A DNA stretch of 64,000 nucleotides, from NCBI GenBank assembly GCA_905339405.1, contig CAJPGC010000030.1, positions 43,956 to 107,955 of the forward strand, in the 5' to 3' direction. The position numbers were made by a program, and so were the translations under genes. Under the pieces are notes generated by a model. It was not told where the DNA came from. It saw only the letters and a list, made by a program, of their open reading frames with translations, and ran no database searches. This DNA is from an uncultured bacterium (GTDB lineage Bacteria > Desulfobacterota > GWC2-55-46). Of the stretch, positions 8,967 through 64,000 are shown piece by piece (the first letter of the stretch is position 1; the number at the start of each line of letters is the position of its first letter).

Positions 8967-9542
8967 TTACATCCCCTTCGTGACAAGCGACACCTTCATC
9001 CTGACGTCGAGGAGGTCAGGGTCCTCGAACCTCGACTTCATCGAAAACTCCCTTACGGCCATGAGCTTTCCGCCGGACTCGGCATGGTAGAGGAAGTTCA
9101 CGAGCTGATTGAGGTCGACCGCTTCGAGCCTCACCTCCGCCGGTTTGTCGATATACCCCGGAGAAGGCCTCTCCTCGAGAGGCTTGACCGAGGCCACCCT
9201 CTCCTTTATGCCCGTCCTTTTGGCTATTTCCTCTATCGCTGACACCGGGGATTCGCCCGATTCAGCCGCACGCTGGCTGACCATGTCCAGGGCGGTCTTC
9301 TTGCCGATGTAATCGGCCTTAAGGGAGGCCATCACGCCTATCTCCTTTTTTTTCGCCTCCACGGCCTTCCTTACGGAAGCGTAGCTGCCGTATAACGTGA
9401 GGCCGCCCGCAAGGAGCGCAAGCGGGATAACGGCGTAAATGGCGTAAAGGTAGGCCTTTTTCCTGTCGGGACGGCCCTTGAGGAAGCCCGCCATCGCCTC
9501 TTTCAAATGTATGACCGGATATGGCAGTCTCATCTCCATCAT
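8967..9542 (-). CDS. gspM: Type II secretion protein M
   Basis: One TM, coiled coil and ferredoxin-like C-terminus; follows gspL. Confidence 0.75.
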   Translation of the reverse strand: MMEMRLPYPVIHLKEAMAGFLKGRPDRKKAYLYAIYAVIPLALLAGGLTLYGSYASVRKAVEAKKKEIGVMASLKADYIGKKTALDMVSQRAAESGESPVSAIEEIAKRTGIKERVASVKPLEERPSPGYIDKPAEVRLEAVDLNQLVNFLYHAESGGKLMAVREFSMKSRFEDPDLLDVRMKVSLVTKGM

Positions 9543-10867
9543 TTTACCTCGATTGCAGCGTTTATGCTGAAGGACGTCCTGCCGCCGGGCTTGGCCCTCG
9601 TCTCGCCCATGGCCGCGTCCTTGAACCCGGCCTTCTGGAGGGCCTCTTTCACTGAGTTGGCGGCGTTAAAGGCAGGGGCCTCTCCCCTTACCGCTACCCT
9701 GCCGTCGGCAAGCGAAAATTCGTCTATTTTGACGCCCAAGCCTTCGGGAACGGCTTCAGCCACGCTCTTCAATACGTCAAGGGACTTGCCGGAGCTTCCG
9801 AGAGAAGCCGACTCCTTCTCAACCGCCTTGAGCTTGGCCTCGAGCTGGTAGACAGGGTCAACGACGTTGCTCTCGGAAGGGAAAAGCTCCTGGTAGGAGG
9901 CCCTCAAAGACTGCCTGTAGGCCTCGAGCTCGCCGGTGAGCCCCCTGTACCTCGCGTAGAAGTCCGCGCCCACAAGCACCAGAAGAGAGGCGCAAAGGGC
10001 GGCCGTGAGCCTGAGCCTCCTCCTGAACGCGGCACGCTCCTTCGTGTACTCGAACTCGCCTCTCCTGAAGTTTACGATGGTGCCGGCAAGCCCCTTATCG
10101 AGGAGCATCGACAATGCCAGTGCTTCAGCGGCCTCCGGGGCGATTGAGCCAGGCAGGTCGAGCGGGACGAGATGGGCACCGCCGAACATCTCCTGCAACG
10201 CCTCCCTGTCGTTCTCCCAGCCGGAGAAATGGAGCTCTTCGACAGTAATCCCTTCTGCGTCGAGAAAAGCCACCCCGAGCCCGACGTTGTCGAGTCTCCT
10301 GGCGTGCTTCAGGAGCCTGGGCATCCCGTCCTGAACGACGGCGAAAACGCCGGGCGAGAGAACGGCCCTGCACCCCTCAGTGCCGAAAAGCTCGTTCATG
10401 AGCACCGGCATTGCGAAGAGCCCCGGCCCCATCCATACTGGGTCTATCCCCAGAGCCGAGAGCGCGTCGAGATAGCCCCTCAAAACGCGCTTTTCCACGG
10501 CGACTGCCATGACCTTGCTTTCACCGAGCTGGACCGCGTCGGCGACGACGTCGTCGACCTCAACGTGGAGAAACCCGGCCAGCTCGAACGGCAGCGCCTC
10601 TATTATCTTTTTCCTGTCCTCGAACGGCAGCTCCACTATCCTGATGGAAAGGTCTTCCGGCGGTATGCCTACGGCTACCTTATCGAAGCCCTTGAAACCC
10701 CTTTTTCCCGCAAGAGGCAGCAGCAGGGCCGAGAGCGCCTGCTTGACTCCACCCTCCGCAGTCACAGGCTGGGAATGGACGGTAACGGGCTCGACCCTTC
10801 CGGCAAGGAAGACCCCGGCCCTTACGGCTTCCCTTCCTATATCAATGACAAGGTTCTTTTTCGACAT
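9539..10867 (-). CDS. gspL: Type II secretion protein L
   Basis: Actin-like N-domain (IDIG, LPFEDRKKI..LPFEL), NFRRGEF, TM and PilN-like C-terminus. Confidence 0.85.
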   Translation of the reverse strand: MSKKNLVIDIGREAVRAGVFLAGRVEPVTVHSQPVTAEGGVKQALSALLLPLAGKRGFKGFDKVAVGIPPEDLSIRIVELPFEDRKKIIEALPFELAGFLHVEVDDVVADAVQLGESKVMAVAVEKRVLRGYLDALSALGIDPVWMGPGLFAMPVLMNELFGTEGCRAVLSPGVFAVVQDGMPRLLKHARRLDNVGLGVAFLDAEGITVEELHFSGWENDREALQEMFGGAHLVPLDLPGSIAPEAAEALALSMLLDKGLAGTIVNFRRGEFEYTKERAAFRRRLRLTAALCASLLVLVGADFYARYRGLTGELEAYRQSLRASYQELFPSESNVVDPVYQLEAKLKAVEKESASLGSSGKSLDVLKSVAEAVPEGLGVKIDEFSLADGRVAVRGEAPAFNAANSVKEALQKAGFKDAAMGETRAKPGGRTSFSINAAIEVK

Positions 10868-11794
10868 CTACGTCTCCCTCCAGTAAAGGACGCCCCCTCC
10901 AAGCTGTATGACCGCCTCGACCTCGCGTACCGATTCTCCGGCGGTTGCCCTGGAGAAGACCCGGTACGTCCTCGATACGGTGGTTATACGGTCCTGGAGG
11001 CCAAAGCCGACCCTCTCGAAGCCGGGCACTTTCATTATGTCCGACCTGTCGCGAAACGGCGCTTCCTTCCTCTTCTTTATGACCCTGTCGGCCAGCTCGC
11101 CGGTCATCTCGTCGCTCAACGCGGCGAGCACCTCTTTTGGGGCCGTGTTTATGTTCACCAGCCCATCCGCGCCGTACGGCGTAAGGTACCTGCTGACTGC
11201 CATAAAAACATCGGGTTTGAAACCTTTTACAAGTAAAAGCTCATCAAGCGCCTCAAGGTGATTGTTCCTCGGTTTATACGGCCTGGGCCCTGAGCCGTAC
11301 TGATGCACCTCCGCGCCGCCGGGCCTCGGCACGTCGTCGTTGTCAATCCAGTCGGCCATCGAGTCAACGAGTGCGTCTTCGAGCTTTAAATCCTTTACGA
11401 GCTTCCTCAGCGGCTTTTCAACCCTCGGGTCGGACAGGCCGGTCAGTGGGTAGACCGCCTTCATCGAAAGTTTTCCCGCTTCGTCAACCGCCCTTATTTC
11501 AACAGAGAGCCCCTCACCGGCCGGTTGCGAGAATACCAGCCCGTCCCTGTCCATTACGAGGTTGCCGTCCCTCCTCAAGAGTTCCTCGAGGCCCGCCTTG
11601 GCCAGCACGACTCCGTCGGTGGCCAGCGCACCTGCCCTTACCGAGTCTTTCAGGATCCCGGCCCTTGAGGAGCCAATATACATCCTGTATGTGAAATCCG
11701 TTACCAGAGTAAGCAGTATCGCCGTGACCAACAGGGCCGCCACGAGCGCGACGCCGCTCTGGTTGAGATAGCGTTTTTTCACGTATTTACGCAT
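10868..11794 (-). CDS. gspK: Type II secretion minor pseudopilin K
   Basis: SGVALVAAL, DEAGKL, DWIDND, ELLLVKG and VNINTAP. Confidence 0.93.
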   Translation of the reverse strand: MRKYVKKRYLNQSGVALVAALLVTAILLTLVTDFTYRMYIGSSRAGILKDSVRAGALATDGVVLAKAGLEELLRRDGNLVMDRDGLVFSQPAGEGLSVEIRAVDEAGKLSMKAVYPLTGLSDPRVEKPLRKLVKDLKLEDALVDSMADWIDNDDVPRPGGAEVHQYGSGPRPYKPRNNHLEALDELLLVKGFKPDVFMAVSRYLTPYGADGLVNINTAPKEVLAALSDEMTGELADRVIKKRKEAPFRDRSDIMKVPGFERVGFGLQDRITTVSRTYRVFSRATAGESVREVEAVIQLGGGVLYWRET

Positions 11795-11817
11795 GGTTGA
11801 CCAAAATACCTCAGAGA

Positions 11818-12462
11818 CTATCTTATCATGGTCCTGGCCGTCGCTGAAAGTTTCTCGCCGGATGAAAGAGTTAAAGTGACGGCAACCGCCCTGGGCGGCT
11901 GCCCTTCAAGAGATGCGTTCCACGCGCCTGCCCATTCCCTGCCGTTGAAGAAGCTTACCTCGAAGCCCTTTATCTCTTCCACCGCCTCAACGGTGAACTT
12001 CTCGCCCTGGAACGCGTCCCAGACCTCTTTGACGAGATCCTTCCTGCCGCCCTCTTCCCTGACGTAATAGTTCACGGCGGAAAGGTCGCCCGTGGGTGCG
12101 TCTTTAGAGTAAACCGGATAGGCCATCGTAGTGAACGACACCGCGCCGGAGTCCCCGTCGCGCCCACCGTTGAAAAAAGTATGCCCGTCCGTCCTCCTGT
12201 AATATGACGCTCGCGCCTCCCTCGAGAACCTCTCCAGAAAATAGCCCGCCTCGATTGTTTTCTCGACTGTCCTGCCAGCGCTGCCGCTTGCCCCGGATAT
12301 CGAGAAGAAGGTCGTATAAAGGGCCGCAGAAAGGGCAGCAGTGAGGCCTACCGCGACGAGCACCTCGATGAGCGTGAAACCGCCGCTGCCTCCAGTCCTA
12401 CTCCTGAAGGTACGAGACAAACGAGACAGGAGGGCCGTTTTTTCGGACGACCTTGAGCTCAA
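11818..12462 (-). CDS. gspJ: Minor pseudopilin J (start may be the TTG at 12420)
   Basis: GFTLIEVL prepilin motif; C-terminal PRAVAVTL. Confidence 0.8.
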   Translation of the reverse strand: MSSRSSEKTALLSRLSRTFRSRTGGSGGFTLIEVLVAVGLTAALSAALYTTFFSISGASGSAGRTVEKTIEAGYFLERFSREARASYYRRTDGHTFFNGGRDGDSGAVSFTTMAYPVYSKDAPTGDLSAVNYYVREEGGRKDLVKEVWDAFQGEKFTVEAVEEIKGFEVSFFNGREWAGAWNASLEGQPPRAVAVTLTLSSGEKLSATARTMIR

Positions 12463-12805
12463 GCCTTTTTACCCCCTTAAGTCCGGAGTCCTCCTCGACA
12501 AGGGTCCATGAATAGCCTTCATAGCCTTCGCCGAAGTCCCCTTCCCTTGAAACTATCCCCTCGAGCTTTATCCTCTCGAGCTTCTGGGCCCCGAGGGAAG
12601 CCACGATTACGTCTTCACGGCTCAGGCTTGCCCCACCAAGCTGGTAGTTGAAGCTCACCACGAGCGTCACCACCACCCCGGCAGTTATGGCGAGAGCCAC
12701 CATGACCTCGATGAAGGTGAAGCCGCGCTCCGCCCTACCCGGCCTTCCCGGAATCTTCCGGCTGGCGCACCTTTGCCCTGCCGGTATATGGATTGAATGA
12801 AACAA
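12398..12805 (-). CDS. gspI: Minor pseudopilin I (start uncertain)
   Basis: RGFTFIEVMVAL; size and gene order fit. Confidence 0.8.
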   Translation of the reverse strand: MFHSIHIPAGQRCASRKIPGRPGRAERGFTFIEVMVALAITAGVVVTLVVSFNYQLGGASLSREDVIVASLGAQKLERIKLEGIVSREGDFGEGYEGYSWTLVEEDSGLKGVKRLELKVVRKNGPPVSFVSYLQE

Positions 12806-13397
12806 CCAAAGACCTCTTTCCAGCGGAAAGCCTCACGTCAAAGGGCTCCGCGCCGTAAGGTGATATGACTAAAGCCGCCTCGCCCCTCGTGACGGCTCCG
12901 AGGCCCGGCGAGCGGACCTCCTCCAGTTGAACGCCGCGTCCGAGCTTTATCTTCCTCAACGCGCTCTCGGCAATTGCGGCGTACTCCTTGCCGTCGGCGG
13001 AGGACTCCACCCTTATCTCTCCGGCGTTGAAGTCGAACCAGAGCCTGTAATAGGAACGCCTGGAAGCGGCCCTCTCGTTCAAAAAGACGGAGAGCCGGGA
13101 CAAGCGGCCTGAATCGGATTCGAGGTTATAGCCCTCGAGCCCTGGGAGCCTCGGGAAGACGACGGCAAGAGCAACGGCGATTACGGCAATCACGGCAAGA
13201 AGCTCGATCAGCGAAAAACCTTTTACAGAGTGGACAGAGTGCGGAGCGCGGCAAGCGAACGTGCGGACAGGTAGACCGGTCTTCTCATCTCCGGGCGGCC
13301 CGGGAGGGCCAGCGCCGGATGAAATATTCATCTCTGGCATTTGACCTTTTTCAATTATTAGGCTTTCCATGAAAATCAGATGTTTTTTCCGTATCAA
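12735..13397 (-). CDS. gspH: Minor pseudopilin H (true start probably downstream)
   Basis: KGFSLIELL; follows gspG. Confidence 0.78.
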   Translation of the reverse strand: MIRKKHLIFMESLIIEKGQMPEMNISSGAGPPGPPGDEKTGLPVRTFACRAPHSVHSVKGFSLIELLAVIAVIAVALAVVFPRLPGLEGYNLESDSGRLSRLSVFLNERAASRRSYYRLWFDFNAGEIRVESSADGKEYAAIAESALRKIKLGRGVQLEEVRSPGLGAVTRGEAALVISPYGAEPFDVRLSAGKRSLVVSFNPYTGRAKVRQPEDSGKAG

Positions 13398-13481
13398 GTA
13401 AGGGTTGGAAGTAAAACGCTGAGCATGAGCATTTTCACTTCCGCCCTGACAAAGAGACCGGGCAAGCAGCGATTTTCAGAA

Positions 13482-13919
13482 TCAGTCCAGGTTCCAGCTC
13501 TCTATGTCGGCGTCAAACCCCTCACCGCCGCGGGCGGCGTCAGCGCCGTAGGAGAGTATGTCATACTCGCCGCTGGCGCCCGGGGAGGCGTAGACGTACG
13601 GGCTGCCCCAGGGGTCAACCGGCACCTTCTTCTTTTCGAGGTAGCCGCCTTCGCGCCAGTTGGCAGGTATCCTTCCGGCCTCTGGCTTTGAAACCAGAGC
13701 CGCAAGCCCTTGCTCGGTGCCGGGGTAAAAGCCGTTGTCGAGCTTGTAGAGCTTCAAGGCCGTCTCGAAGTTCCTTATCTGGACCTTGGCTTCTGTGACC
13801 TTCGCCTCGTCGGTCCTGCCCACTATTCTCGGGGCTATTATGGCCGCGAGGATGCCGAGTATCACGATGACGACCATGAGCTCGATGAGAGTAAAACCTT
13901 TGTCACATCTTTTCATCAT
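13482..13919 (-). CDS. gspG: Major pseudopilin G
   Basis: [25 protein letters not shown] and SYGAD. Confidence 0.96.
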
Positions 13920-14184: not shown

Positions 14185-14826
14185 ATGCGCATCAGGGTTA
14201 TGGTCGCTTTCAGCAACAATCTTTTCTCCGAAGGCATAACAAGGCTTTTGGACGACGAACAGGACATCGAGGCTGACTACATACACGCAGGCAGCGAATA
14301 CAGCGCTGAAGACATCGAATCGGCAGATGTCGTACTCACCGATTTTCCCACTCTCTACGGCTCGTTCGTATCTATCGACACCTCCAGGAAAAACGGCTTC
14401 ATCCTAATCGACACCGACTGCGGCAAAGACAACATAATCTCCGCCATAATGGCCAAGAACCTGAGCGGCGTACTTTTAGGCAACGCCTCCACGGCGCTCC
14501 TGAAGCGCGCCATAAGGTCGGTCGCCCGTGGCGACGTCTGGATGGACAAGGCGACCGTCAAGGACCTCCTCTGGAGCGTAGGGCGCCTCCGCAAGGACCA
14601 CTCGGAGACGCTCTCGCCAAAGGAGCAGGAGATAGTGGCCCTCACGGGAAAGGGCCTGCGCAACCGGGAGATAGCCGAGAAGCTCCACATAAGCGAGCTC
14701 ACGGTAAAGACGCACCTCCACAGGATATTCAAGAAACTGGAGATAACGACGAGGTCGCAGCTCATCACCTATTCGATAAGGAACCCGGCCGCAAAGGACG
14801 CGCTCTTCGGGTTGAAGCAGCACTGA
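14185..14826 (+). CDS. LuxR/NarL-family regulator with an atypical receiver domain
   Basis: C-terminal LSPKEQEI..GLRNREIAEKLHISELTVKTHL HTH. Receiver lacks the N-terminal acidic pair. Start re-called to ATG 14185. Confidence 0.88.
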   Translation: MRIRVMVAFSNNLFSEGITRLLDDEQDIEADYIHAGSEYSAEDIESADVVLTDFPTLYGSFVSIDTSRKNGFILIDTDCGKDNIISAIMAKNLSGVLLGNASTALLKRAIRSVARGDVWMDKATVKDLLWSVGRLRKDHSETLSPKEQEIVALTGKGLRNREIAEKLHISELTVKTHLHRIFKKLEITTRSQLITYSIRNPAAKDALFGLKQH

Positions 14827-14834: not shown

Positions 14835-15743
14835 ATGATATCTGAAAGACTAAAGTATTTGAACTTCGGCCTTGCCCTGCTGGCCTTCCCTCTAATGGGC
14901 CTGCTGGCAAAGGACCTGCTGGTCCTCAAATACAGGCCCGAGATAAAGACCGGCCTGCCGCCGGTGGCGGCTGAGGCCCCGGCAGATGCGCCCTTTGAGA
15001 GCTACTCCCCGATACTCGAGCGTGGGGCCTTCCCTTCCGCCACGAGGCAGCTTACGAAGATCGACATCCTCGATGCTGCCGCGGCGGCGGCCCACCCGGT
15101 GCTGACAGAGCTCAGGCTGATCGGCACTTACGCAGGCGCGGCCGGTTACGCTGTCTTTGAAAAGACAGGCTCGGCCGTCCAGGAGGTCTTCCGGACAGGT
15201 CAATCTGTATTCGAAGCTGGCACTCTGCTGGCCGTAGAGGACGGCAAGGCAAAGATTTCCGCTTCCGGAAGCGAAGTCACTTTCACGGTCTTCAATGAAG
15301 AACTTCCCTCGAGCATAACGGAGATGGGAGAGGCGGCAGAGCTGCCGGACACCGAAGACGGGCAGCCTGCCCGGCAGTCGAGCACGGGGGCGAGCTTAAG
15401 GTACACGGAAAAAGTCTCGGAGAATGCGTGGGTGATTGACCAGAAGGCCGTGGCCGCATCCCTCAGCGACATGAGCCGGGTCATGACGGACGCCAGACTC
15501 ACCCCGAAGGTCTCTTCCGGCGGGACGGTCGAGGGGTTCACCCTGACGGACATAAAGCCCAGGGGCATTTTCGACGCCATAGGTTTAGAGGACGGGGACG
15601 TCCTCACGAAGATAAACGGCTACGAGATAGACTCCCCCGAGAAGGCCGTGCAGGTGCTCTCGGCGCTTCGCGGGCAGACGAACATAGACCTCGATATCGT
15701 GCGCGCTGGCAAGCCAAAGAGCCTGCACTACACCATAAGGTAA
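14835..15743 (+). CDS. gspC: Type II secretion protein C (PDZ)
   Basis: N-terminal TM, HR domain (LRLIGT) and PDZ domain (IGLEDGDVLTKING). Confidence 0.88.
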   Translation: MISERLKYLNFGLALLAFPLMGLLAKDLLVLKYRPEIKTGLPPVAAEAPADAPFESYSPILERGAFPSATRQLTKIDILDAAAAAAHPVLTELRLIGTYAGAAGYAVFEKTGSAVQEVFRTGQSVFEAGTLLAVEDGKAKISASGSEVTFTVFNEELPSSITEMGEAAELPDTEDGQPARQSSTGASLRYTEKVSENAWVIDQKAVAASLSDMSRVMTDARLTPKVSSGGTVEGFTLTDIKPRGIFDAIGLEDGDVLTKINGYEIDSPEKAVQVLSALRGQTNIDLDIVRAGKPKSLHYTIR

Positions 15744-15777
15744 AAAAGGAGCGTGAAAAAGCCGAAGCCGGATTGTG

Positions 15778-15786
15778 TGTTATAAT
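15778..15786 (+). promoter_or_regulatory. Extended -10 element upstream of gspD
   Basis: TGtTATAAT in the gspC-gspD spacer. Confidence 0.5.
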
Positions 15787-15918
15787 CTCTACGTATTTTG
15801 ATGTGAGCAGCGCACCGTATTCCATGCCGCACCCTTTGCCGAACGCCGAATCGCAGCTGGCCGGGCCTTTTGCCCGCCACTGCCACCACACCCTCCGATC
15901 GTCATGGGATACTCGCAT

Positions 15919-17874
15919 ATGGCTAAAAAAGCCGCCGTCCTCATCTTCCTCTTCATCCTGTTCGCTATCCCGGGAGTTGTCCATCCTCAACAGGCCGGCC
16001 AGAAAAAAGCGAAAGCCGCCGAGAAGATAACCCTCAACTTCGTTGACGTCGAGATATCCTCGCTCGTCAAGATAATGAGCGAGATAACCGGCAGGAACTT
16101 CATCTACGACGAGAACCTCAAGGGCAAGGTAACGATAATCGCCCCCGGCAAGCTCACGAGCGAGGAGGCCCTAAGCGTTTTCGTCTCGGCCCTGGAGCTG
16201 AAGAACTTCACGATCATACACACTGACGGCTACTACAAGATAGTGCCGGCGGCCGAAGCAAGGCAGAGCGCGACGAGGGTGATGAAGAACGTCGGAGCGG
16301 CGCGCCCGGACGAGTTCATCGTAAGGCTCATCCCGCTAAATTACGTGCCGAGCCAGGACGCCTTCTCGGCCGTCCAGCCGCTGGTTTCGAGGAACGGGCA
16401 GATATCTGTCTTCGGCTCGAGGAACGCCCTCCTCCTTGTGGACACGGCGCAGAACATCGAGAAGATACTCGAGATAATCGCCTCGATAGACTCCCCACCC
16501 TCGGTTCGCGCCCCGGAGGTCATATACCTCAAGTACGCGCAGGCCGACGTCATCTCCCAGCTCCTCAGGAGGGAGGAAGCAAGGCGCGGAGGCGGCAGGA
16601 GGGGCGAGAACGGGGAAGGCAGCTCCATCGTCCCCGACACGAGGCTGAACGCGATAATCCTGTCCGATTCGATCTCGGACAGGGAGTATTACAGGAACTA
16701 CATATCGTTCCTTGACGTGCCCCCTCCGGAGGCCTCGAGCCGCATAAACGTCTACTACCTGGAGAACGCAGACTCCGAGGACATGGCAAGGGTGATAGAC
16801 GCGCTCCTGAGGCCAGGGGCCGCCCAGCAGCAGGCGTCGCAGGCGGCCGGTGCGGCCGCGGCCCCGATAGCGCAGGAGCTTACTGGCGCGAAGATAAGCG
16901 TTACGCCGTTCAAGGCGGCGAACTCGCTCATAATCATGGCCTCTCCTGCCGACTACCAGAACCTTGTGCAGGTCATCGAGAGGCTCGACAGGAGGCCCAA
17001 GCAGGTCTTCGTCGAGGCAATGATAACCGAGGTGACGGTCGACAAGGCTCTGGAACTGGGCACGAGGTTCCGGGTCACGGCGGAAAAGGACAACTCTCCG
17101 GTAGTCATCGGAGGCGTCGGCTCGATAGATTCTACGGCTATACAGGGGATACTGAACGGGCTGGCCGGGCTCACCATAGGAGGCCTCGGAAACCTCCTCA
17201 CTGTGCCAATCACGAGGGCCGACGGCACGACCTTCAATCTCACGGCCCCGGGCTTCGCGGTCCTTTTCTCGCTCTCGGAGTTCAAGGACATAGTGAACGT
17301 GCTGTCGACCCCGCATATCCTGACGAGCGACAACCACGAGGCGGAGATAATGGTCGGCGAGAACGTCCCCTTTCTCTCCAGCTTCGAGCGCCAGTCCGGG
17401 ACGGAGGGGCAGCCTGTCATACAGTCTATTGAAAGAAGGGACGTCGGCATAAGGCTCAGGATAAAGCCGAAGATAAGCGAAGGGGATTTCGTAAAGCTTG
17501 ACATCTACCAGGAGATCTCGGCCATCTCGCCCACGAGGACCGGCGGGGCGGCAGACATCATAACGACTAAGAGGTCGGCCCAGACGAGCGTGGTCGTCAA
17601 GAACAACCAGACGGTCGTCATAGGCGGCCTGATACAGAACAGGAACACCAACAACTCGAGCAAGGTCCCTCTCCTGGGCGACATACCGCTTATAGGCTGG
17701 CTCTTCAAGTCGACAAGGGACCAGAACCAGAAGACCAACCTGCTGGTCTTCATAACGCCGTACATCGTCGAGGACTTCAAGGGACTCGAGGATCTGAGGC
17801 TCAAAAAACAGCAGGAGTTCAACAGGTACGGCGTAAATCCGCAAAGCAACGGGAGGCCTTCGAGACTGCCCTGA
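15919..17874 (+). CDS. gspD: Type II secretion secretin D
   Basis: ITLNFVDVEI, N-domains, QVFVEAMI, LSTPHIL and KVPLLGDIPLIGWLF. Confidence 0.96.
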   Translation: MAKKAAVLIFLFILFAIPGVVHPQQAGQKKAKAAEKITLNFVDVEISSLVKIMSEITGRNFIYDENLKGKVTIIAPGKLTSEEALSVFVSALELKNFTIIHTDGYYKIVPAAEARQSATRVMKNVGAARPDEFIVRLIPLNYVPSQDAFSAVQPLVSRNGQISVFGSRNALLLVDTAQNIEKILEIIASIDSPPSVRAPEVIYLKYAQADVISQLLRREEARRGGGRRGENGEGSSIVPDTRLNAIILSDSISDREYYRNYISFLDVPPPEASSRINVYYLENADSEDMARVIDALLRPGAAQQQASQAAGAAAAPIAQELTGAKISVTPFKAANSLIIMASPADYQNLVQVIERLDRRPKQVFVEAMITEVTVDKALELGTRFRVTAEKDNSPVVIGGVGSIDSTAIQGILNGLAGLTIGGLGNLLTVPITRADGTTFNLTAPGFAVLFSLSEFKDIVNVLSTPHILTSDNHEAEIMVGENVPFLSSFERQSGTEGQPVIQSIERRDVGIRLRIKPKISEGDFVKLDIYQEISAISPTRTGGAADIITTKRSAQTSVVVKNNQTVVIGGLIQNRNTNNSSKVPLLGDIPLIGWLFKSTRDQNQKTNLLVFITPYIVEDFKGLEDLRLKKQQEFNRYGVNPQSNGRPSRLP

Positions 17875-17897
17875 AGGCGAAGGGACGAGTAGACAGG

Positions 17898-19448: not shown

Positions 19449-19457
19449 CAAGGACGT

Positions 19458-23060: not shown

Positions 23061-23064
23061 GGCC

Positions 23065-24555: not shown

Positions 24556-24586
24556 ACACGCTCGCAGGAAAAAGGAAGGTAGGACC

Positions 24587-25630: not shown

Positions 25631-25638
25631 AGGGAATT

Positions 25639-27341: not shown

Positions 27342-27435
27342 AGACTAACAAGCTTAAATGGTTTGGATGAACGCGCCGGTTTTTACAGGGCGGAAAAGAC
27401 GGCAATAACGCTTTCAAAAAGGTGCGCAAGACGCA

Positions 27436-28652: not shown

Positions 28653-28672
28653 AACAAGGGGGGTGCGGCAAG

Positions 28673-48868: not shown

Positions 48869-48901
48869 ACGGCTGGAAAAAAGAGCAAAGGAGACAAAGC
48901 C

Positions 48902-49669: not shown

Positions 49670-49689
49670 ATCAAAAGAAGGAGAAGGAG

Positions 49690-50919: not shown

Positions 50920-50930
50920 AAGGAGCCCGG

Positions 50931-52142: not shown

Positions 52143-52148
52143 AACCTG

Positions 52149-53327: not shown

Positions 53328-53338
53328 AAGGACCGCTG

Positions 53339-54247
53339 ATGGAAAAAACACCGAGGATAAGCATCGGTCTGCCTGTCTACAACGCGGAAAAATACCTGCG
53401 GCACGCCCTTGACGGTATCCTTTCACAGACCTTCACGGACTTCGAGCTCATAATCTGCGACAACGCCTCGACCGACTCGACTCCCGAGATATGCGGCTCT
53501 TACGCGGCCTCCGACAGCCGGATACGCTTTTACAGGAACGAGCGGAACCTCGGCGCGGCCGAAAACTTCAACAAGGTCTTCAGGCTCGCCAGGGCCGATT
53601 ATTTCAAATGGATCGCGTATGACGACATCTGCATGCCGACTTTCCTCGAAAAATGCGTGGAGGTCCTGGAGAGGCACCCGGAAGTTGCGCTGTGCTACCC
53701 AAAGACAACGCTCATTGACGCGGATGGCGGAGAGATCATGAAGTACGAGGACAGGCTCCACATGATGCAAGCCTCTCCGCACGACAGGCTGAGGCACTTC
53801 CTCACAAAGGTAAACCTGGCGAACGCCGTTTTCGGGGTGATAAGGACTCCGGTCCTCAGGCAGACCGGGCTCCTGGGGAAATACTTCGGCGCCGATTACA
53901 TCCTGCTGATGGAGATATGCCTCAGGGGCAAGTTCTACGAGTATCCGGAGCACCTGTTCCTCAGAAGGGACCACGAGAGGAACTCGAGACGCCTCCCGAG
54001 AAAAGAGATAGCTGTCTGGTGGGACAGCTCGAGGAAGACCGTCTACAAGTACATCCAGAGCAGGCTCGTCTCAGAGCAGTTCCTCGCGATAAACCGCTCG
54101 GGCCTCGGTTGGTTTGAAAAAGGGCTCTGCTTCGCGCAGATAGGCAGATGGATATTGAGGCAATGGCGGGCAAAGGGCGGCAGGTACAAGGCAAACCTGA
54201 AGGGGAAGGTTTCGGTCCCAAAGCCCCAGAAGAACTCAGTCTTTTGA
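53339..54247 (+). CDS. GT2 glycosyltransferase (alternative start 53324)
   Basis: SIGLPVYNAE, DNASTD, NLGAAENFN and AYDD. Confidence 0.92.
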   Translation: MEKTPRISIGLPVYNAEKYLRHALDGILSQTFTDFELIICDNASTDSTPEICGSYAASDSRIRFYRNERNLGAAENFNKVFRLARADYFKWIAYDDICMPTFLEKCVEVLERHPEVALCYPKTTLIDADGGEIMKYEDRLHMMQASPHDRLRHFLTKVNLANAVFGVIRTPVLRQTGLLGKYFGADYILLMEICLRGKFYEYPEHLFLRRDHERNSRRLPRKEIAVWWDSSRKTVYKYIQSRLVSEQFLAINRSGLGWFEKGLCFAQIGRWILRQWRAKGGRYKANLKGKVSVPKPQKNSVF

Positions 54248-55270
54248 TTGCGAGATTCTTTTTCCGGAAAGCATTCCAAAGAGCGCGCCAGCGGCCGCGC
54301 CGGAAGTATTGAGCACCAGGTCGGAGAGCTGCGAGAACCGCTCAGGCATGAATACCTGGGCCGTCTCTATCGACAGTGACAGGGCAAAGCAGACTGAAAC
54401 GGCGAAGATGAGCTTCATGGCGGCGCTCCGGGCGGCGGGCTTAAAGAAATAGGCCAGAAACCCCAGCGGCATGAAGCCGATGAGGTTAACTGCAACGTCA
54501 GCGCCGTCGAACCGGAAACTTCTCCCGCTTTCGAAGACCGGGCCCAGGAAGACCCTTTTCGCGGGCCTGAATACAGGCGGCAAGGATATCTGAGGCCCTC
54601 CCGTGACCGAGTTTTTAACCAGAGGTCCGCTCCCATCGAAAAGGTAAAGACCTGTGAGCCCTGATGCCGGCCCTGCTGCCAAAGAGGCTTCAGGCAATCC
54701 GGCCTCTTCAGGTGAAAGCGCCCTGTTCCATAGCGCGAGGCTCCTGAGGCTCCCATGCCAGTGATGTCTTCCATCAGGTGAAGAGCCGAGAGTAAAGCAG
54801 GCCGCCTTCTCGATCGCGTAAGACGGATTCAGGGAACGCCCTGCGAACTTCCCGTCTACATACAGTATGATTCCGCCCTTTCCGGCGGCGACAAGAATAG
54901 AGGCCCACTTGTCTTTTGAAAATGCCGACCTTGCGCCTGTAACTGCCTCTGAGCCAATGTTGATTATTGCCCGGCCGCTCCATTGAGATACGCTTAAAAC
55001 TTCTTTACCGGCGGCGTCATAAAAAGAGAGCAAAGCGCCTGACCGGTCCATTAAAAAATCCCGCGCGACGGCTGAAATCTCTATTGTCGCCTCCCCTGCC
55101 GGGAAAAGCGGAGCGCTGGCGCAGGCCCCTGCGATACCTGAGCCGGTAAATTCGAGACTCTGCCCGTTGAGCCTGGCCCCGTTTTCAGGGCTTGTCTCAA
55201 AAGGCCACAAACCAGCGACGAGAGCGACGACGACCATGACAGAGAACAGGACCGGGACGAGAAACCTCAT
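54236..55270 (-). CDS. LamG/concanavalin-like domain plus C-terminal VanZ membrane protein
   Basis: N-terminal TM ending LVAGLWPF; LamG-like LYVDG, LG....HWHG.L...ALWNRALS; VanZ-like D...N.IGFMPLG, IETAQ.F.P.R.S..SD...NT.G. Confidence 0.8.
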   Translation of the reverse strand: MRFLVPVLFSVMVVVALVAGLWPFETSPENGARLNGQSLEFTGSGIAGACASAPLFPAGEATIEISAVARDFLMDRSGALLSFYDAAGKEVLSVSQWSGRAIINIGSEAVTGARSAFSKDKWASILVAAGKGGIILYVDGKFAGRSLNPSYAIEKAACFTLGSSPDGRHHWHGSLRSLALWNRALSPEEAGLPEASLAAGPASGLTGLYLFDGSGPLVKNSVTGGPQISLPPVFRPAKRVFLGPVFESGRSFRFDGADVAVNLIGFMPLGFLAYFFKPAARSAAMKLIFAVSVCFALSLSIETAQVFMPERFSQLSDLVLNTSGAAAGALFGMLSGKRISQSKD

Positions 55271-56111
55271 CTTCGCGTTGTTTGCGGCATTTTCAGTCTT
55301 CATCTATTCGCCTTATCTCATTGCTCTTTATAATCTCTCGAGTGAAAACGAGCTGTACTCCTACGCGCCTTTCATCCCGCTTTTCAGCGCGTACCTCCTT
55401 TATTCTAATCGGAAGAAGATATTCACGCAAACGGGATTTTCAAACCGGGGCATTGCGCTGATAATCGCCTCCGGGCTCCTTTACGCCGCCGCTCAGTTCT
55501 CAGCCCTGAGCGGAGACAACATACTCACTGTCATGGCAGTGTCCTGGGCCGCGTTTCTGTCCGGCGGCTTCATGACGGTTTACGGGACAAGGGCCGCCAG
55601 GGCAGGCGCCTTTCCGCTCGCCTTTCTCCTGTTCATGGCCCCCCTGCCCCAATCTGCGGTCGACACGCTGACGCAGTTACTCCAGTCCTGGTCAGCGGAG
55701 ACGGCCTGGTGGCTCTTTAACCTCGTCGGCGCACCGGTCCACAGGGAGGGCTACTTCTTCCACCTGCCCGGACTCACGGTAGAGGTCGCCAAACAGTGCA
55801 GCGGGATAAGATCGAGCATGGCTCTTTTCATCTCCGGGGTCCTCGCGTCCCACCTGTTCCTTAGGACCTGGCCAGCCAGGGGCGCGCTCCTCGCGGCAGT
55901 CGTGCCGATAGCAGTCCTCAAGAACGGGCTCAGGATAACGGCCTTGACGCTCTCCGGGTATTACGTCGACGAGCGGATGCTCTACGGGAGCCTGCACACG
56001 AGGGGCGGCATGCTTTTTTTCGGCGTCGCTATCGCCCTCGCCGGGTGTGCCGTCTGGGGGCTCCGAGCGCTCGAGCGCAAATCGGCAAAAAAAAATGCCG
56101 CGGGGGCCTGA
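55236..56111 (+). CDS. Exosortase (EpsH/Xrt family), with no fused EpsI domain
   Basis: YSY..FIP, FPL.FL.F..PLP, VA..CSGIRS (Cys), NGLR (Arg) and LH...G (His). Confidence 0.92.
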   Translation: MTENRTGTRNLIFALFAAFSVFIYSPYLIALYNLSSENELYSYAPFIPLFSAYLLYSNRKKIFTQTGFSNRGIALIIASGLLYAAAQFSALSGDNILTVMAVSWAAFLSGGFMTVYGTRAARAGAFPLAFLLFMAPLPQSAVDTLTQLLQSWSAETAWWLFNLVGAPVHREGYFFHLPGLTVEVAKQCSGIRSSMALFISGVLASHLFLRTWPARGALLAAVVPIAVLKNGLRITALTLSGYYVDERMLYGSLHTRGGMLFFGVAIALAGCAVWGLRALERKSAKKNAAGA

Positions 56112-56135: not shown

Positions 56136-57950
56136 TTAGAGATGGCGTTTCCTGTTGACTCTCATGACGACCGCTATGCCGGTGAACATCATGGCCAGCG
56201 CGCCCGCCAGAACAGGGTACTTGAAGCCGTAGACTATGGGGGTCAGCGCGACCCTGGAGACGGCCCTCAGCGTCTCATGCCTGGCTATGAAGTCGGCCAC
56301 CGGGGGAGACACCCTGTAGTAAAGGTCGACGAACGATGCCCCGAGCGGGTTTGTAAGGAGCACGTTGTCCCTGAAGGAACGCAGGACCATGACCTCCGGC
56401 TCGAGATAGCTGCCGTAGGCCGCGGTGGCGATAAAGCAGCCGCCGCCGCTACTTACGCCGGAAGGCCCGGAGATCGGGGTGCCCGGGTTCACCGCGGCGT
56501 CAGCCACTTCGACCGTTGTCATGGCAGTAGCGGTAGCGCCCTGGTTGTCCGTGACCTTCACAACCGGGGTGTATGAGCCGGGCGCGGTGTAGCTATAGAG
56601 CGCCGGGGCTGTCGTGGTGGTGGCGTCTATCGTGCCGTTGCCGTCGAAGTCCCACTCGAACTTTACGATGACGCCGTTCGGGTCAGAGGCCGATACGTTG
56701 AAAGTAACCGACGAGGTCGAGCCGCTCTGCGTGACCGTCCCGAGTATCGACACGATGATGGGCGGCGTGTTCGCGGAGGTCGAAACAGTGACGGCCTCGG
56801 GGTCTGATATAACGTAGGCCCCTCCGTTGTCCTTTGCCCTCACGCGGGCGTTGTAGGTGCCTGCGGTCTGATAGGTTTTCGCCGCGGAAGGCGTAACGCT
56901 CGAGTAATCGTAGACGCCGTCACCGTCGAAGTCCCACTCATACCCGGTTATCGTGCCGTCGCTGTCGGCCACCGATGCCGTGAACTGGACCTGCAGCGGG
57001 GCGGTGCCGGAGGACGGGGATGCCGCGATGGACGTGACAACCGGCGGCACGTTGGAAGTGGTAAAGGTGCTGCCGGACGAGGTGGCGCTGTTACCGGCCT
57101 TGTCGGCTGAAACCACCCTGTAGCTGTAGGTTGTGAAGCTCTTGAGGCCAGCTATCTCGGCGGAATGTACGGTTTCAAGCTGTGAGTTGAGCGCCGTGGA
57201 AGCCGAATAGCTGCCGCCTGTGCCGAATTGGACCTGGGTCGTAGACGGCTCGTTGGTCGTCCATGTCACTAGCGCTGAGGAGGCGGTAATGTTCTCCACT
57301 TTCACGTTAGAAACGACCGGGGGCGTAACATCGGCGGCCGCCGCCGTAGTGAAGGTAAAATCAGGCGAGGTAGTGGAATTGCCAGCTGCGTCCTTGCTCA
57401 CGACCCTGTAGTGATAGAGGGTCGATGGCGAAAGGCCGGATACCGCCTGGATGTGGTTCGTGGCCAGCGCTGTGTTCAGCGTCGTGGTATAGCCGTACGA
57501 GGTCGTCATGCCGTACTGCACCTGTGTGGTCGAGGGCTCGTCGGTTATCCAGTTGATGGTTACGGCGTCCGGGCCAGGCGCTGCCGTGTACACGCCGGAT
57601 ATGACCGGCCCTGCCACGTCGTTCACCACTGACTTTGAGACTTCGTTCGAATACGCGCTCTCCGTCATGGCCGTGTTGTAGGCCGTGACCGCGAAGAAAT
57701 AGGTCGCGTTGGACAGGTTCGACACCTTGTACGTCGTTACCCTGCCCGCGTCAACGGACTGCGTGTAGGCCCCGGGAGCGGTGCCGTAATAGACCTTATA
57801 TCCCCCGAGGTCGGTCAACGGAGACCCGTTGGTATATGTTGTGGGCGCGGCCCATGACAGGGTTGCGTCTCCGGCCAGAGCCGGGCCCGCTGACATGAAA
57901 GACATGGCCAGCGCGGCTAGAAACACCTTGAGCTTTTCCTTCCTTGGCAT
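56136..57950 (-). CDS. Secreted Fn3/Ig-like plus 2x PKD surface protein with a CFI-box-CTERM tail
   Basis: Signal peptide; Fn3 ([15 protein letters not shown]); two W.T.EPSTTQV..G repeats; two WDFDG.G PKD repeats; [15 protein letters not shown]...LRSFRD...YY..SPP, then TM and RKRH. AGGAGG RBS. Confidence 0.9.
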
Positions 57951-57974
57951 TGCACTTCCTCCTTCTTGGTGAAT

Positions 57975-58011
57975 AAAAAAACCGCCTAAAGGCATGGTGA
58001 TCCTTTGGCGG
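57975..58011 (-). terminator. Riboswitch-controlled intrinsic terminator
   Basis: Minus strand CCGCC-AAAGG...CCUUU-A-GGCGG-U7; overlaps the 3' strand of aptamer P1. Confidence 0.85.
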
Positions 58012-58135
58012 CTCGGCGAACCTGGAAGCTGGGTGCGAATGTCAGGGAGTTAAATCAGCAGGAGGTGCCCGGTCTTCTTTAGTCCCGTTGCTCTGCGCCG
58101 CCGGGTTTCCCCGGGTTTGCTCTAAGCAAAGGATC
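57999..58135 (-). ncRNA. Cyclic dinucleotide GEMM-I (c-di-GMP-I family) riboswitch, A20 variant
   Basis: Minus strand: P1 GAUCCUUUG/CAAAGGAUC; J1/2 CUUAGA; GCAAA-CCCGGG-GAAA-CCCGG-CGGCGCAGAGC; receptor GGGACUAAAG; 3' UCGCCGAGCCGCC. Confidence 0.92.
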
Positions 58136-58213: not shown

Positions 58214-59665
58214 ATGGGGACATACGGGGAAGAAATATTCATCGGGTCAGTGGCAGGCGCGCTGGGCCTGGGGGCGGTATGCCTCGCGGCGGTCTTTTTC
58301 AGGCGGACTCCCAAAAGGGTCTTCCTCCTGGCGGGAGCGGCGGCGTACATGGCGGGCGCTATGACGTTCTCCACCCCTGGCCCTTCTGCGGCCGGGGCTC
58401 AATACATACGCTCGCTTTTCCTCCTGCTTTCAGCGGGCTTCGCTGTCTCTGCCCTGCCCGCAGGTCTTTTTAAAAAAACATTTTCAACACTGGGCGCGAG
58501 GCTGTGGCGCAGATACGAATACATGGACCTGTGGCTCGAGACGACCGAGAAGATAAGCTCAAGGCTCGAGACGTCAGAGATAAAAAGTTTTCTCGCCGAG
58601 GTATGCGGCCGCGCTCTCGGCGCCTCCCCGGTGCACGTTTGGCTCTATGAAGCGCCCTCGCGCTGCTTCATCGCAAATTCCTTGAGCATCGGGCCTTCAT
58701 TCAGAAGGATAAGGGCTGAACACCGGCTGATAGAGCACATCAGGTCGTCCACAAGGCAGCCTTTCCTGCTTAAGGACGCGCTCACGCCTGAAGAGTTCAG
58801 GAGCTTCGCGGTCCCCCTGAAGGCGGAAGTCTGCGCCCCTCTCATAGTCCACGGGGAGATAACCGGGTTTCTGCTCGCCGGGCGAAGGGACAGGCCGGCG
58901 TATGCGCAAGACGAGCTGCGCCTCCTCGGCGCCATCGCAGCGCAGGCCGCGGTCCAGGTGAAAAACGTCCGCCTGAGCGGCGAGATACTCGACATGAAGG
59001 AGTCGGACCTGTTCAACAGGATGTCCTCGTTCGTGGCGCACGACCTCAAAAACCTCACGAACTCTCTCGCGCTCCTCGGGCACAACGCCAGGACGAACAT
59101 CTCAAACCCGGCTTTCCAGAGGGAGGCGCTAAAAGCCATAGACGCGACGGTAGTCAAGATGCGCTCCCTGGTTGAAAAGATGGCGGGCGGGATGCGCGCG
59201 CTCGAGCTAAACCCCAACTGGAGCGATTTGCGCGCAGTCATGGCCAGGGCCGCGGGCCGCCTCCCGGTCAAGGCAAACTCGAGGCTCAAGATCGAAGAAG
59301 GCAGTCCCCTGCCCTGCCTCATAGATGAAGAGCTCGTCGAGACGGTCTTCCTGAACATCCTTACGAACGCCTCTGAAGCGACCACTGACAGGGACGAGAT
59401 ACTGGTCTCGTTCCGGCAGGGACAGGGCACTCTTTCGGCCGTAATATCGGACAACGGCTACGGCATACCTATGCCTTTCCTCGAGAACGGCCTTTTCAGG
59501 CCGTTCAGGACCACAAAAAAGGACGGCTTCGGCGTGGGCCTGTATCAGTGCAAAAAGGTGATGGAAGCCCACGGCGGCACGATAGAGGCCGAAAGCGAGG
59601 AAGGCAAAGGCGCCTCGTTCACATTGAAGTTCCCGCTGCCGGTTGGCGGCGAAAAAGCATGTTAA
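58214..59665 (+). CDS. prsK: PrsK-like sensor histidine kinase (shortened)
   Basis: GAF domain, FNRMSSFVAHDLKN, NILTNA, DNGYG, FRPFRTTK and GFGVGLYQ. Lies upstream of prsR. Confidence 0.8.
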   Translation: MGTYGEEIFIGSVAGALGLGAVCLAAVFFRRTPKRVFLLAGAAAYMAGAMTFSTPGPSAAGAQYIRSLFLLLSAGFAVSALPAGLFKKTFSTLGARLWRRYEYMDLWLETTEKISSRLETSEIKSFLAEVCGRALGASPVHVWLYEAPSRCFIANSLSIGPSFRRIRAEHRLIEHIRSSTRQPFLLKDALTPEEFRSFAVPLKAEVCAPLIVHGEITGFLLAGRRDRPAYAQDELRLLGAIAAQAAVQVKNVRLSGEILDMKESDLFNRMSSFVAHDLKNLTNSLALLGHNARTNISNPAFQREALKAIDATVVKMRSLVEKMAGGMRALELNPNWSDLRAVMARAAGRLPVKANSRLKIEEGSPLPCLIDEELVETVFLNILTNASEATTDRDEILVSFRQGQGTLSAVISDNGYGIPMPFLENGLFRPFRTTKKDGFGVGLYQCKKVMEAHGGTIEAESEEGKGASFTLKFPLPVGGEKAC

Positions 59666-63729: not shown

Positions 63730-63754
63730 AAATCAAAAACTTCAAGGAGGCTTC

Positions 63755-64000
63755 ATGAAGAGAATCCCCACTCTTTTGGCCGCGGTTTCAATTGCAGCTT
63801 TCGCGTATAGCGACGCCACAGCAGCGCAATTTTCCTACGGCGACGTATTCGCGTCGGTCAACGACGGCAAGGTGGCGCACTACGGAGCCGACGGCACGCT
63901 GCTGGAGACCCTGAACACCGGCGTCGGCGGCATTACGAGCGGACTGGCATTTGACGGAAACGGAAACCTCTACGTGTCGAACCACACGAACGGTTCCATA
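63755..64000 (+). CDS. Secreted beta-propeller (NHL-like) protein, partial; possible PEP-CTERM substrate
   Basis: AAGGAGG RBS; MKRIPTLLAAVSIAAFAYSDATAA signal peptide; SGLAFDGNGNLYVSN repeat. The C-terminus is outside the window. Confidence 0.7.
   Translation, partial: MKRIPTLLAAVSIAAFAYSDATAAQFSYGDVFASVNDGKVAHYGADGTLLETLNTGVGGITSGLAFDGNGNLYVSNHTNGSI

Follow-up and report, generated by a model that had tools for sequence, protein, structure and literature searches.

A composite envelope locus in an uncultured Desulfobacterota bacterium joins exopolysaccharide, exosortase and type II secretion genes with candidate cyclic dinucleotide sensor elements

Post-translational control by cyclic di-GMP (c-di-GMP) is well described for the synthase-dependent polysaccharides cellulose, alginate, Pel and poly-N-acetylglucosamine (PNAG), and the PelD and BcsE proteins of such systems carry dead GGDEF domains that bind c-di-GMP through an RxxD motif and activate Pel or cellulose synthesis (PMC8461298, in excerpt). 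Post-translational control of Wzx/Wzy pathways has been called incompletely understood in the excerpted text of PMC12802240. For surface proteins, the crossing of the outer membrane by exosortase clients and similar sorted proteins has been an open question since 2006 (PMC1569441); GlyGly-CTERM and MYXO-CTERM proteins require a type II secretion system (T2SS) for their display on the surface (10.1101/2023.06.07.544157 and PMC11980579, both in excerpt), and PMC9850573 refers to type II secretion solely as a supposed path into the periplasm. Among riboswitches, A in place of G20 defines the GEMM-Ib class, which senses cyclic GMP-AMP (cGAMP), an A20G change makes a Geobacter GEMM-Ib element select c-di-GMP instead of cGAMP, and deletion of the cGAMP synthase lowers the expression of genes behind GEMM-Ib riboswitches (passages of PMC6456294). 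Here we analyzed a locus that can be compared with several of these systems. The locus lies in a 64,000 nt stretch (the window) from the draft genome of an uncultured bacterium of the Desulfobacterota (contig CAJPGC010000030.1; in our numbering G000:C30:43956-107955; the genome, G000, is 2.65 Mb, 95% complete and in 60 contigs). It encodes a T2SS, exopolysaccharide (EPS) synthesis and export, an exosortase with its Prs regulators and a surface protein with a CFI-box-CTERM domain.

Sixty open reading frames (ORFs) of the window were scanned against Pfam and NCBIfam. These scans bore out the gene list of a preliminary description made from the sequence alone, which had reported contiguous T2SS, Wzx-type EPS, exosortase and prsK/prsR-like genes and one CFI-box-CTERM gene; gspM was assigned by position and gspH by its prepilin motif. 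The genes are arranged as gspM through gspG, a LuxR regulator gene, gspC through gspF, the EPS/exosortase/Prs block and then gspN, which lies past the window end. The locus continues for about 5.8 kb past position 64000 and its end there is an artefact of the window. The region just outside (G000:C30:107710-113794) encodes a PEP-CTERM protein (TIGR02595, 26.4 against a cut-off of 16), two PrsT-like TPR proteins, one of them above its cut-off (348.7 against 312.2), and gspN on the minus strand (TIGR04411, 96.9 against 50), so that with GspN the T2SS core set C to M has its further member outside the window. From gspM through the second PrsR gene the order was collinear in three relatives of two other genera (G006, G009 and G022; 44-82% protein identity) and was found again on a partial G003 contig; that the locus is one conserved unit is supported. 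The two PrsT-like genes and gspN occupy the same place in the three collinear relatives. The PEP-CTERM protein, which has an NHL/beta-propeller-like body and is encoded past the second PrsR gene, was present at that place only in G000 and was missing there from G006, G009 and G022.

No GGDEF, EAL or HD-type domain was found in the scanned window ORFs apart from a catalytically dead GGDEF domain on the priming transferase, in line with the preliminary description, which had seen no cyclase or phosphodiesterase in the window. The same description had listed three independent cyclic dinucleotide signatures, and each of them proved to have its defining sequence features: the motifs of a PilZ protein, an RxxD motif on the transferase and a GEMM-I riboswitch. 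At the level of sequence the three sensor elements are solid. We think it probable that this is a composite envelope locus in which EPS genes, an exosortase/PrsK/PrsR/PrsT system and an FN3/PKD surface protein lie inside a T2SS cluster together with three elements that read cyclic dinucleotides. Such a locus would be a good test bed for how cyclic dinucleotide signals switch on a biofilm matrix.

The priming phosphoglycosyl transferase (27504-28652, plus strand) is a protein of 382 aa with one membrane segment and a Bac_transf domain (221.8 bits). N-terminal of both lies a GGDEF-like stretch of ~150 residues (~residues 28-165). Its RxxD motif reads REID at residues 88-91 (nt 27765-27776) and stands five residues ahead of the GG[DE]EF position, which reads SQGHV. 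When the stretch was aligned by hhalign to 14 of the genome's own GGDEF domains, the match covered 136 columns with 97.4% probability (E 1.5e-11) and placed the RxxD on the I-site column. R88, D91, G94 and W95 were invariant in 46/46 aligned homologues, down to 44% identity, and the former active-site motif was not conserved. A search limited to the GGDEF-like region yielded 193 proteins of similar length, some of which already carry a precomputed PF00990 label. With an AlphaFold model of the transferase, Foldseek placed PglC and WbaP at ranks 1-4, and the listed matches from rank 5 were GGDEF-domain proteins (E ~1e-5), among them SadC, WspR, c-di-GMP-bound GcbC and PleD. An active diguanylate cyclase was considered and rejected on the SQGHV at the motif position and on a shortened segment where cyclases have FKxxND...GHxxGD.

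The closest described relatives of this domain are those of PelD and BcsE, which have in common with it the GGDEF fold, the lost active site, the RxxD kept in register and the attachment to polysaccharide synthesis (PMC8461298, in excerpt). Unlike PelD and BcsE, which are separate subunits of synthase-dependent systems, the domain described here is fused to a monotopic priming transferase of a Wzx-dependent pathway, and the second arginine of PelD is not clearly matched. From its sequence we take the N-terminal domain to be a putative degenerate-GGDEF receptor of the PelD/BcsE kind, in which binding of a dinucleotide at the RxxD would change transferase activity, as PelD and BcsE use their dead GGDEF domains. 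Three observations weigh against this assignment. Pfam GGDEF was not detected on the transferase even at E<=1; the AlphaFold model was of moderate quality, with a mean predicted local distance difference test (pLDDT) score of 68.5 and N-domain blocks at ~70-90; and where PelD needs its second arginine, R402 (PMC8461298, in excerpt), the transferase has just a nearly invariant Lys120 near the aligned place, in a loose alignment. The strong divergence of the domain, its shortened substrate-binding segment and a secondary arginine that is not clearly kept would also fit a domain that now binds no nucleotide and acts as a scaffold for dimerization or for contact with other EPS proteins, with the RxxD serving a structural role. 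The action of EpsW on EpsZ is an earlier example of a priming transferase regulated through contact with a protein (PMC12802240, in part). We regard the scaffold explanation as rather unlikely, as four residues including the RxxD arginine and aspartate stayed invariant in all the aligned homologues while the active-site motif decayed, which is the pattern of the PelD- and BcsE-type receptors (PMC8461298, in excerpt).

With EpsW-EpsZ of Myxococcus xanthus, where EpsW activates the initiating transferase EpsZ, a receptor domain on the transferase would have in common post-translational control at the first committed Wzx/Wzy step (PMC12802240, in part). EpsW, a response regulator with a single domain, is phosphorylated and acts on the large transferase EpsZ, whereas the transferase of this locus is small, has one membrane segment and carries the sensor-like domain as a fusion (compared with the excerpted part of the same source). 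If the assignment is true, the sensor-like domain would bring the first committed step of the most common type of pathway under the control of a second messenger. The literature search, with supplements, which may list such a fusion, lying beyond its scope, found no paper on a GGDEF-phosphoglycosyl transferase fusion, and neither GGDEF nor c-di-GMP occurs in PMC11257628 (0 occurrences). The I-site domain fused to a priming transferase is a new variant feature.

The second element is a GEMM-I riboswitch (RF01051) with a terminator on the minus strand (57974..58131; aptamer 58131-58004, terminator 58014-57974). In a search with permissive filters it scored 48 bits, above the gathering score of 35 (E 2.7e-6), and a whole-genome search found it again as the sole copy in G000. 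A default gathering-score Rfam run of the window missed the element despite its 13 bits above the gathering score; a 45-nt insertion in one hairpin probably explains this miss. Routine scans may count too few of the elements that have long insertions in a hairpin. The riboswitch precedes the CFI-box gene and is followed by GGAGG and the start ATG at 57950. Its aptamer 3' end overlaps a bulged hairpin and U-run at 58014-57974 that is present in the minimum-energy fold, and the terminator is retained in 4 orthologues. Given this overlap of terminator and aptamer, transcription should stop early when no ligand is present, and bound ligand should permit read-through. Without ligand the terminator would form; with ligand the aptamer would take the 5' arm of the terminator and transcription would read through into the CFI-box gene. 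This predicted ON behaviour matches that of reported Geobacter GEMM-Ib elements (passages of PMC6456294). The same element and terminator lie upstream of the orthologous gene in the three collinear relatives, and the element also precedes that gene in two contigs of public metagenome-assembled genomes (L099 and L101). Five model-aligned matches had standard pairs in 90.2% of pair cells compared to 31-49% in slid controls, and 12/29 pairs were changed on both sides, in an alignment fitted to the covariance model, which favours the structure. A related riboswitch with A at the ligand-selecting position precedes a different kind of gene in G038 (L193:11909-12504), where it stands ahead of a small lipoprotein that has the same N-terminal FN3-like module and no CFI-box tail.

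The unpaired base before the first GC pair, model position 11, is A in the window, G006, L099, L101 and G038 and G in G009 and G022. We take this position to be the equivalent of G20 of Vc2, which puts A at the G20-equivalent in five of seven related riboswitches. A corresponding assignment is available for Geobacter, where A14 of Gs1761 corresponds to G20 of Vc2 (PMC6140456, in part). By its sequence, the A at the G20-equivalent predicts a response to 3'3'-cGAMP, or to cGAMP and c-di-GMP both. The preliminary description had proposed cGAMP or c-di-GMP as the ligand and had called for a look at Hypr-type GGDEF synthases elsewhere in the genome. Fifteen GGDEF proteins were found in G000, all outside the window. 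Three of the 15 have Ser (GHLAGS or DHLVGS) together with GGDEF, with the architectures GAF-GGDEF, REC-GAF-GGDEF and GAF-GGDEF, and so carry by sequence the Hypr signature, a Ser replacing the guanine-reading Asp with GGDEF rather than GGEEF (passages of PMC6456294). Both the base at the G20-equivalent and these candidate synthase genes fit the proposed choice of ligands.

A response to c-di-GMP, alone or besides cGAMP, would place the whole locus under one messenger. The canonical G20 is found in two of the orthologous riboswitches, those of G009 and G022. Both ligands are bound by the G20A mutant of Vc2, and bispecificity is known for several GEMM-Ib members that naturally have A20 (PMC6140456, in part), the last of these being a point against a purely cGAMP-directed switch. 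A link between the riboswitch base and the Ser-type synthases was also considered and rejected, which likewise does not help the cGAMP assignment: Ser-type GGDEF proteins occur with A20 and G20 alike and no correlation was seen (3/15 in G000, 3/20 in G006, 2/8 examined in G009 and 2/9 in G022, the sets of the three relatives consisting of hits individually above the cut-off and leaving aside one weak hit per genome and the above-cut-off G006 hit C18:554750). Control by c-di-GMP is a possibility that we take seriously without holding it probable, as A is the signature of the cGAMP-selective class and its change to G flips selectivity (passages of PMC6456294), A is found in most of the related riboswitches and the genome has Hypr-type synthase candidates.

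The riboswitch can be compared with the Geobacter GEMM-Ib elements upstream of pgcA and Gmet_0970, with which it has in common the Rfam family, the A at the G20-equivalent, the terminator-type ON architecture, an extracellular protein as target and Ser-type GGDEF candidates in the genome (passages of PMC6456294). It differs from them by a 45-50 nt hairpin insertion, by its target, a CFI-box FN3/PKD protein in an EPS/exosortase locus, and by orthologues in a sister genus that carry G20. For G. sulfurreducens 17 GEMM-I riboswitches are reported, compared to the single copy in G000. The A/G difference between orthologous riboswitches is a new variant feature. As it affects the very base that selects the ligand, it provides a natural experiment on how a regulon moves between control by c-di-GMP and by cGAMP.

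The third element is a zinc-ribbon and PilZ protein of 115 aa (20893-21240, plus strand; PF07238, 28.9 against a cut-off of 22.5), the first gene of the EPS export unit. It has CxxC...CxxC, RCSKR (RxxxR) and DFSGHG (DxSxxG), and both RxxxR and DxSxxG were retained in 22/22 zinc-ribbon PilZ homologues from relatives. Its stop codon is 35 nt ahead of wza. The order LuxR-PilZ-Wza-outer membrane protein recurs in 8 other loci with no T2SS genes in between, which indicates that LuxR and PilZ belong to the EPS export unit. Being encoded with the wza, wzz and kinase-like genes, the PilZ protein probably passes c-di-GMP occupancy on to the export machinery.

The LuxR regulator (14185..14826, plus strand, with its true start at ~14185) has an atypical receiver domain and a GerE helix-turn-helix (HTH). 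It had been proposed as a possible fourth sensor of the CsgD/VpsT kind. The best relative of solved structure by sequence was indeed VpsT (E 4.9e-13), and like VpsT of Vibrio cholerae the protein combines an atypical receiver with a LuxR HTH at the head of matrix genes. The c-di-GMP motif of VpsT is W[F/L/M][T/S]R. The WLTR of VpsT aligns with WMDK in the window protein, and 17 family members keep W[MILV]D[KRN]. LuxR as a fourth sensor of the VpsT type was rejected for its lack of this motif.

Conservation of the T2SS-EPS adjacency in relatives had been suggested as a check on the locus, and it was found to hold in 12 relatives and to fail in four. Apart from the collinear loci, T2SS, PrsK/R, PrsT, exosortase, EPS export, PilZ and LuxR genes were found on one stretch in varied orders in G002, G005, G016, G038 and a second G009 locus, a set that is biased towards linkage, having been picked for contigs on which a PilZ or CFI-box gene occurred together with a T2SS gene or contig end. 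The remaining 17 loci with GspD orthologues were inspected separately for EPS and Prs neighbours. Linkage was seen in G013, G027 and G028. In G019, G034, G037 and G040 no EPS or Prs gene was found over at least 12 kb around the same T2SS type; G011 and G015 had one readable side without them, G004 was ambiguous and seven contigs were too short to tell. Linkage survives different gene orders across at least eight genera and four families of the order. A gspN homologue lies between gspL/M and gspC in G011, G016, G019 and G020 and beside gspF in G005, G013, G028 and G038, and this placement in relatives implies that the EPS/exosortase/Prs block of the window lineage sits between gspF and gspN. 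The second G009 locus (G009:C1:2540001-2562000) contains PrsK, PrsR, a sugar dehydrogenase, PrsT, a PilZ paralogue and a full T2SS paralogue (GspD 64% identical), and by gene matches G022 seems to hold such a second Prs-PilZ-T2SS locus too.

These neighbourhoods bear on whether the T2SS works with the exosortase system at all. It may instead be the general secretion system of the order, with unrelated cargo, and lie beside the EPS and exosortase genes for historical reasons. Most genomes of the order have a single GspD of this type, with orthologues 49-76% identical irrespective of a CFI-box protein, and the loci free of EPS and Prs genes, the two with a bare readable side and the LuxR-PilZ-Wza units that lack intervening T2SS genes are as such an explanation would have them. 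So is a 230-nt gap with a GC-rich inverted repeat behind gspF, which makes the T2SS and EPS genes separate transcription units. Both this gap and the four EPS-free genomes count against a functional partnership. On the other side stand the persistence of the linkage through several gene orders, although the rearranged genomes counted here were chosen in the biased way described above, the splitting of gspN from gspC-M by the whole EPS block in the window lineage and the second Prs-PilZ-T2SS locus of G009. We see the T2SS as a mere neighbour as possible, if short of probable. From the conserved, rearrangement-resistant neighbourhood and the split cluster we infer a link between the T2SS and the locus that is not universal. 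Two further T2SS-like clusters are present in G000 (GspD ~30% identical; five secretins in all), answering the suggestion that a second T2SS be looked for elsewhere in the genome. The proposal that a dedicated T2SS exports the sorted proteins stays a tentative one and is weakened by a T2SS type that is order-wide and has no EPS or Prs genes nearby in four genomes.

In a partnership with the exosortase system, the T2SS would carry the matrix proteins of the locus across the outer membrane. The literature search found no paper with an experimental T2SS-exosortase link. The nearest precedents are the rhombosortase/GlyGly-CTERM system of Vibrio cholerae and the myxosortase/MYXO-CTERM system of Myxococcus, both with T2SS-dependent display; alike are the C-terminal tag, transmembrane helix and basic tail, here encoded beside a T2SS, and the invariant Cys of the CFI-box, as in MYXO-CTERM (10.1101/2023.06.07.544157 and PMC11980579, both in excerpt). 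Unlike in those systems, the adjoining enzyme here is an exosortase and the CFI-box is a 69-residue domain rather than a short tripartite tag. The T2SS cluster split around the exosortase/EPS block is a concrete candidate route for sorted proteins across the outer membrane, and the T2SS-embedded exosortase locus is a new variant feature. The elements can be joined in one scheme in which the T2SS bracketing the locus would be the outer membrane route for proteins sorted by the exosortase system, c-di-GMP would act on priming through the dead GGDEF domain and on export through PilZ, the riboswitch would let cGAMP release the surface protein, and sister genera would have re-tuned this riboswitch by the one base A20/G20. 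As a whole we consider this scheme distinctly unlikely to be right in every part.

The surface protein (56136..57950, minus strand) has a signal peptide, FN3 and PKD repeats (PKD and fn3 matches), a CFI-box-CTERM domain with an invariant Cys (NF041770, 107.9 against a cut-off of 40), a transmembrane helix and a basic tail, and is the sole CFI-box protein in G000. Its gene and the exosortase gene are convergent neighbours with a common hairpin terminator and are adjacent also in the three collinear relatives, L099 and L100. The CFI-box domain itself is widespread and was found in at least 596 stretches of species genomes, among them those of Nitrospirota, Gammaproteobacteria, Geobacteraceae and Syntrophales, and some genomes have more than one copy. 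Neighbourhoods of the best 79 public loci from other genomes (L099-L177) were compared. By tblastn and a five-sequence exosortase hidden Markov model, which is small and may miss distant forms, an exosortase was found within 10 kb at 2/79 loci, and an exosortase as a general CFI-box partner was rejected. A GEMM-I riboswitch as a general partner was rejected as well, with matches at 5/79 loci that lie clearly upstream of the gene in L099 and L101, possibly in L125 and not in two. No sorting enzyme was evident in the neighbourhoods of the 79 loci, and no paper on the term CFI-box-CTERM was found.

The low count of exosortases near CFI-box genes weighs against the exosortase as the enzyme that processes this protein, and G005 and G016 have their CFI-box gene close to the T2SS and 28-36 kb away from the exosortase. 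On these two grounds the CFI-box protein as an exosortase client is doubtful. On balance we lean slightly towards an arrangement in which the exosortase serves PEP-CTERM proteins (one is encoded behind the second PrsR gene of G000, and the genome has 12 PEP-CTERM matches in all) and another enzyme encoded elsewhere handles the Cys-bearing CFI-box tail. Cys-bearing tags are cut by CPBP-type proteases (excerpt of the Haft preprint, 10.1101/2023.06.07.544157), and by analogy the invariant Cys of the CFI-box recalls tags whose cleavage by other proteases is followed by transport through a T2SS. Such a division of labour has to be set against the shared terminator and the repeated adjacency of the two genes, the lack of the PEP-CTERM gene behind the second PrsR gene in the collinear relatives and the small exosortase model.

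The exosortase (55167..56111, plus strand; PF09721, 177.9 bits) passed the general TIGR02602 cut-off (149.4 against 105.6) and no subtype cut-off (XrtA 147.7 against 208, XrtC 158 against 300), and has the conserved Cys, Arg and His in place. A VanZ/LamG protein gene lies between the EPS synthesis genes and the exosortase. G000 has two exosortases; the other is encoded on contig C3 with its own PrsK-/PrsR-like genes, and EPS export genes follow ~30 kb farther along. The preliminary description had named a prsK and two prsR genes, of which the first prsR stands at full family strength. This PrsR sigma-54 activator (59548-61044, plus strand) scored 568.5 against 502.6 with TIGR02915 and contains GAFTGA. 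The PrsK-like GAF histidine kinase (58214..59665, plus strand) scored 203, below the TIGR02916 cut-off of 300, and matched model positions 299-679 only. Its ORF (58088-59665) encodes at most 525 aa and likely 483 aa from the Met at 58214, compared to 689-710 aa in the orthologues of G009, G022 and G006, so that the membrane part is short and the N-terminal membrane sensor lacks ~200 residues. A nucleotide-sugar dehydrogenase gene (61047-62363, plus strand) lies between the two PrsR genes. The second PrsR-like protein (62383-63729, plus strand) also fell below the cut-off (TIGR02915, 371 against 502.6); it keeps Walker A and has no GAFTGA loop, and judged by this probably cannot contact sigma-54. 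Sigma-54 promoters (TGGCAC-N5-TTGC, <=2 mismatches) were not enriched, with 37 matches compared to 48 expected, and none was placed convincingly ahead of the riboswitch or the EPS operons. The search thus pointed to no PrsR targets, and the missing enrichment counts against the main reading of the locus.

Compared with the XrtA/PEP-CTERM system (PMC1569441), the locus likewise combines an exosortase with PrsR and PrsT that exceed their cut-offs, contains EPS genes and encodes a PEP-CTERM protein at its edge. It differs in that the exosortase, PrsK, exporter, chain-length protein, kinase, FemAB and amidotransferase are all below XrtA-system cut-offs and in the separate exosortase with PrsK-/PrsR-like genes on contig C3. 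From these family scores the window system is best called a paralogous exosortase system.

The T2SS genes are encoded in two groups. On the minus strand (8967..13919) lie a gspM-like gene, gspL, gspK, gspJ, gspI, gspH and gspG, with GspL (113.1 against a cut-off of 65), GspK (161.9 against 130) and GspG (180 against 88.9) above their cut-offs, GspJ and GspI below theirs and GspH recognized by its prepilin motif only. The gspM-like ORF (8967-9542) has one transmembrane segment and matched no Pfam family even at E<=1; it keeps its place in the three collinear relatives and was assigned by position. On the plus strand (14835..20660) follow gspC of the delta type (GspC_delta, 147, just below 150) and the genes for the GspD secretin (538 against 351), the GspE ATPase (700.9 against 630) and the GspF platform protein (426.1 against 424). 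GspE as a c-di-GMP sensor was rejected. The MshEN receptor consists of two tandem 24-residue RLGxx..G..L...L..Q motifs (PMC5013675), and this tandem motif was absent from the first 150 residues of GspE, though PF05157 matches residues 20-97.

The remaining genes of the EPS export unit (21275..26637, plus strand) encode a Wza-like exporter, a TIGR03016-like outer membrane protein, a Wzz-like chain-length protein, a MinD/ParA-like ATPase and a J-domain-BY-kinase-like ATPase. All were below the XrtA-system equivalog cut-offs, which marks them as related paralogues and not as members of the XrtA system. The last two genes (24587-26637) are an unusual pair for a polysaccharide co-polymerase module: after the MinD/ParA-like ATPase comes a BY-kinase-like ATPase that carries a DnaJ J-domain at its N-terminus. 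Downstream, at 26856..27487 on the plus strand, are an rfaH-like antiterminator gene (26856-27341; NusG/RfaH matches) and two ops-like elements. The elements are two exact GGCGGTAG words (27441-27448 and 27480-27487). No other copy occurs in the window, and both fall within the leader of 162 nt that separates rfaH from the transferase gene. GGCGGTAG is the ops consensus. On the sequence, the pair suggests RfaH-dependent read-through of the long EPS operon.

The EPS sugar synthesis and assembly genes (28577..54247, plus strand) were assigned by family scans and are all collinear in G006, G009 and G022. They encode an oxidoreductase, an acetyltransferase, an aminotransferase, a deacetylase, a FemAB-like protein, GT2 and GT4 glycosyltransferases, an AsnB-type amidotransferase, a pyruvyl transferase, a Wzx flippase (PF13440, 311 bits), an FrhB-like protein, a radical SAM/SPASM protein, a CDP-glucose synthase and three C-methyltransferase-like proteins. 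Where the preliminary description spoke of a Wzx/Wzy cluster, Wzx stood firm, and the place of Wzy is taken by a candidate, an ORF of 438 aa (33785-35101) with at least six hydrophobic segments and no Pfam family at E<=1. In the same Pfam scan at E<=1, ORF 40180-41457 had a weak DUF5123 match alone (E 0.016, below the cut-off). Between 46143 and 53327 the FrhB-like Fe-S protein, the radical SAM/SPASM protein, the CDP-glucose synthase and the three C-methyltransferase-like proteins are encoded in a row, and going by the gene families the polymer may contain a branched or methylated CDP-sugar of an unusual kind.

Upstream of the locus, at window positions 1-8963, lie a dihaem cytochrome c/cytochrome b561 cluster, a peroxiredoxin gene and a Fur-ZnuABC zinc-uptake operon. 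The Znu operon is not beside gspM in G006 and adjoins it also in G009 and G022.

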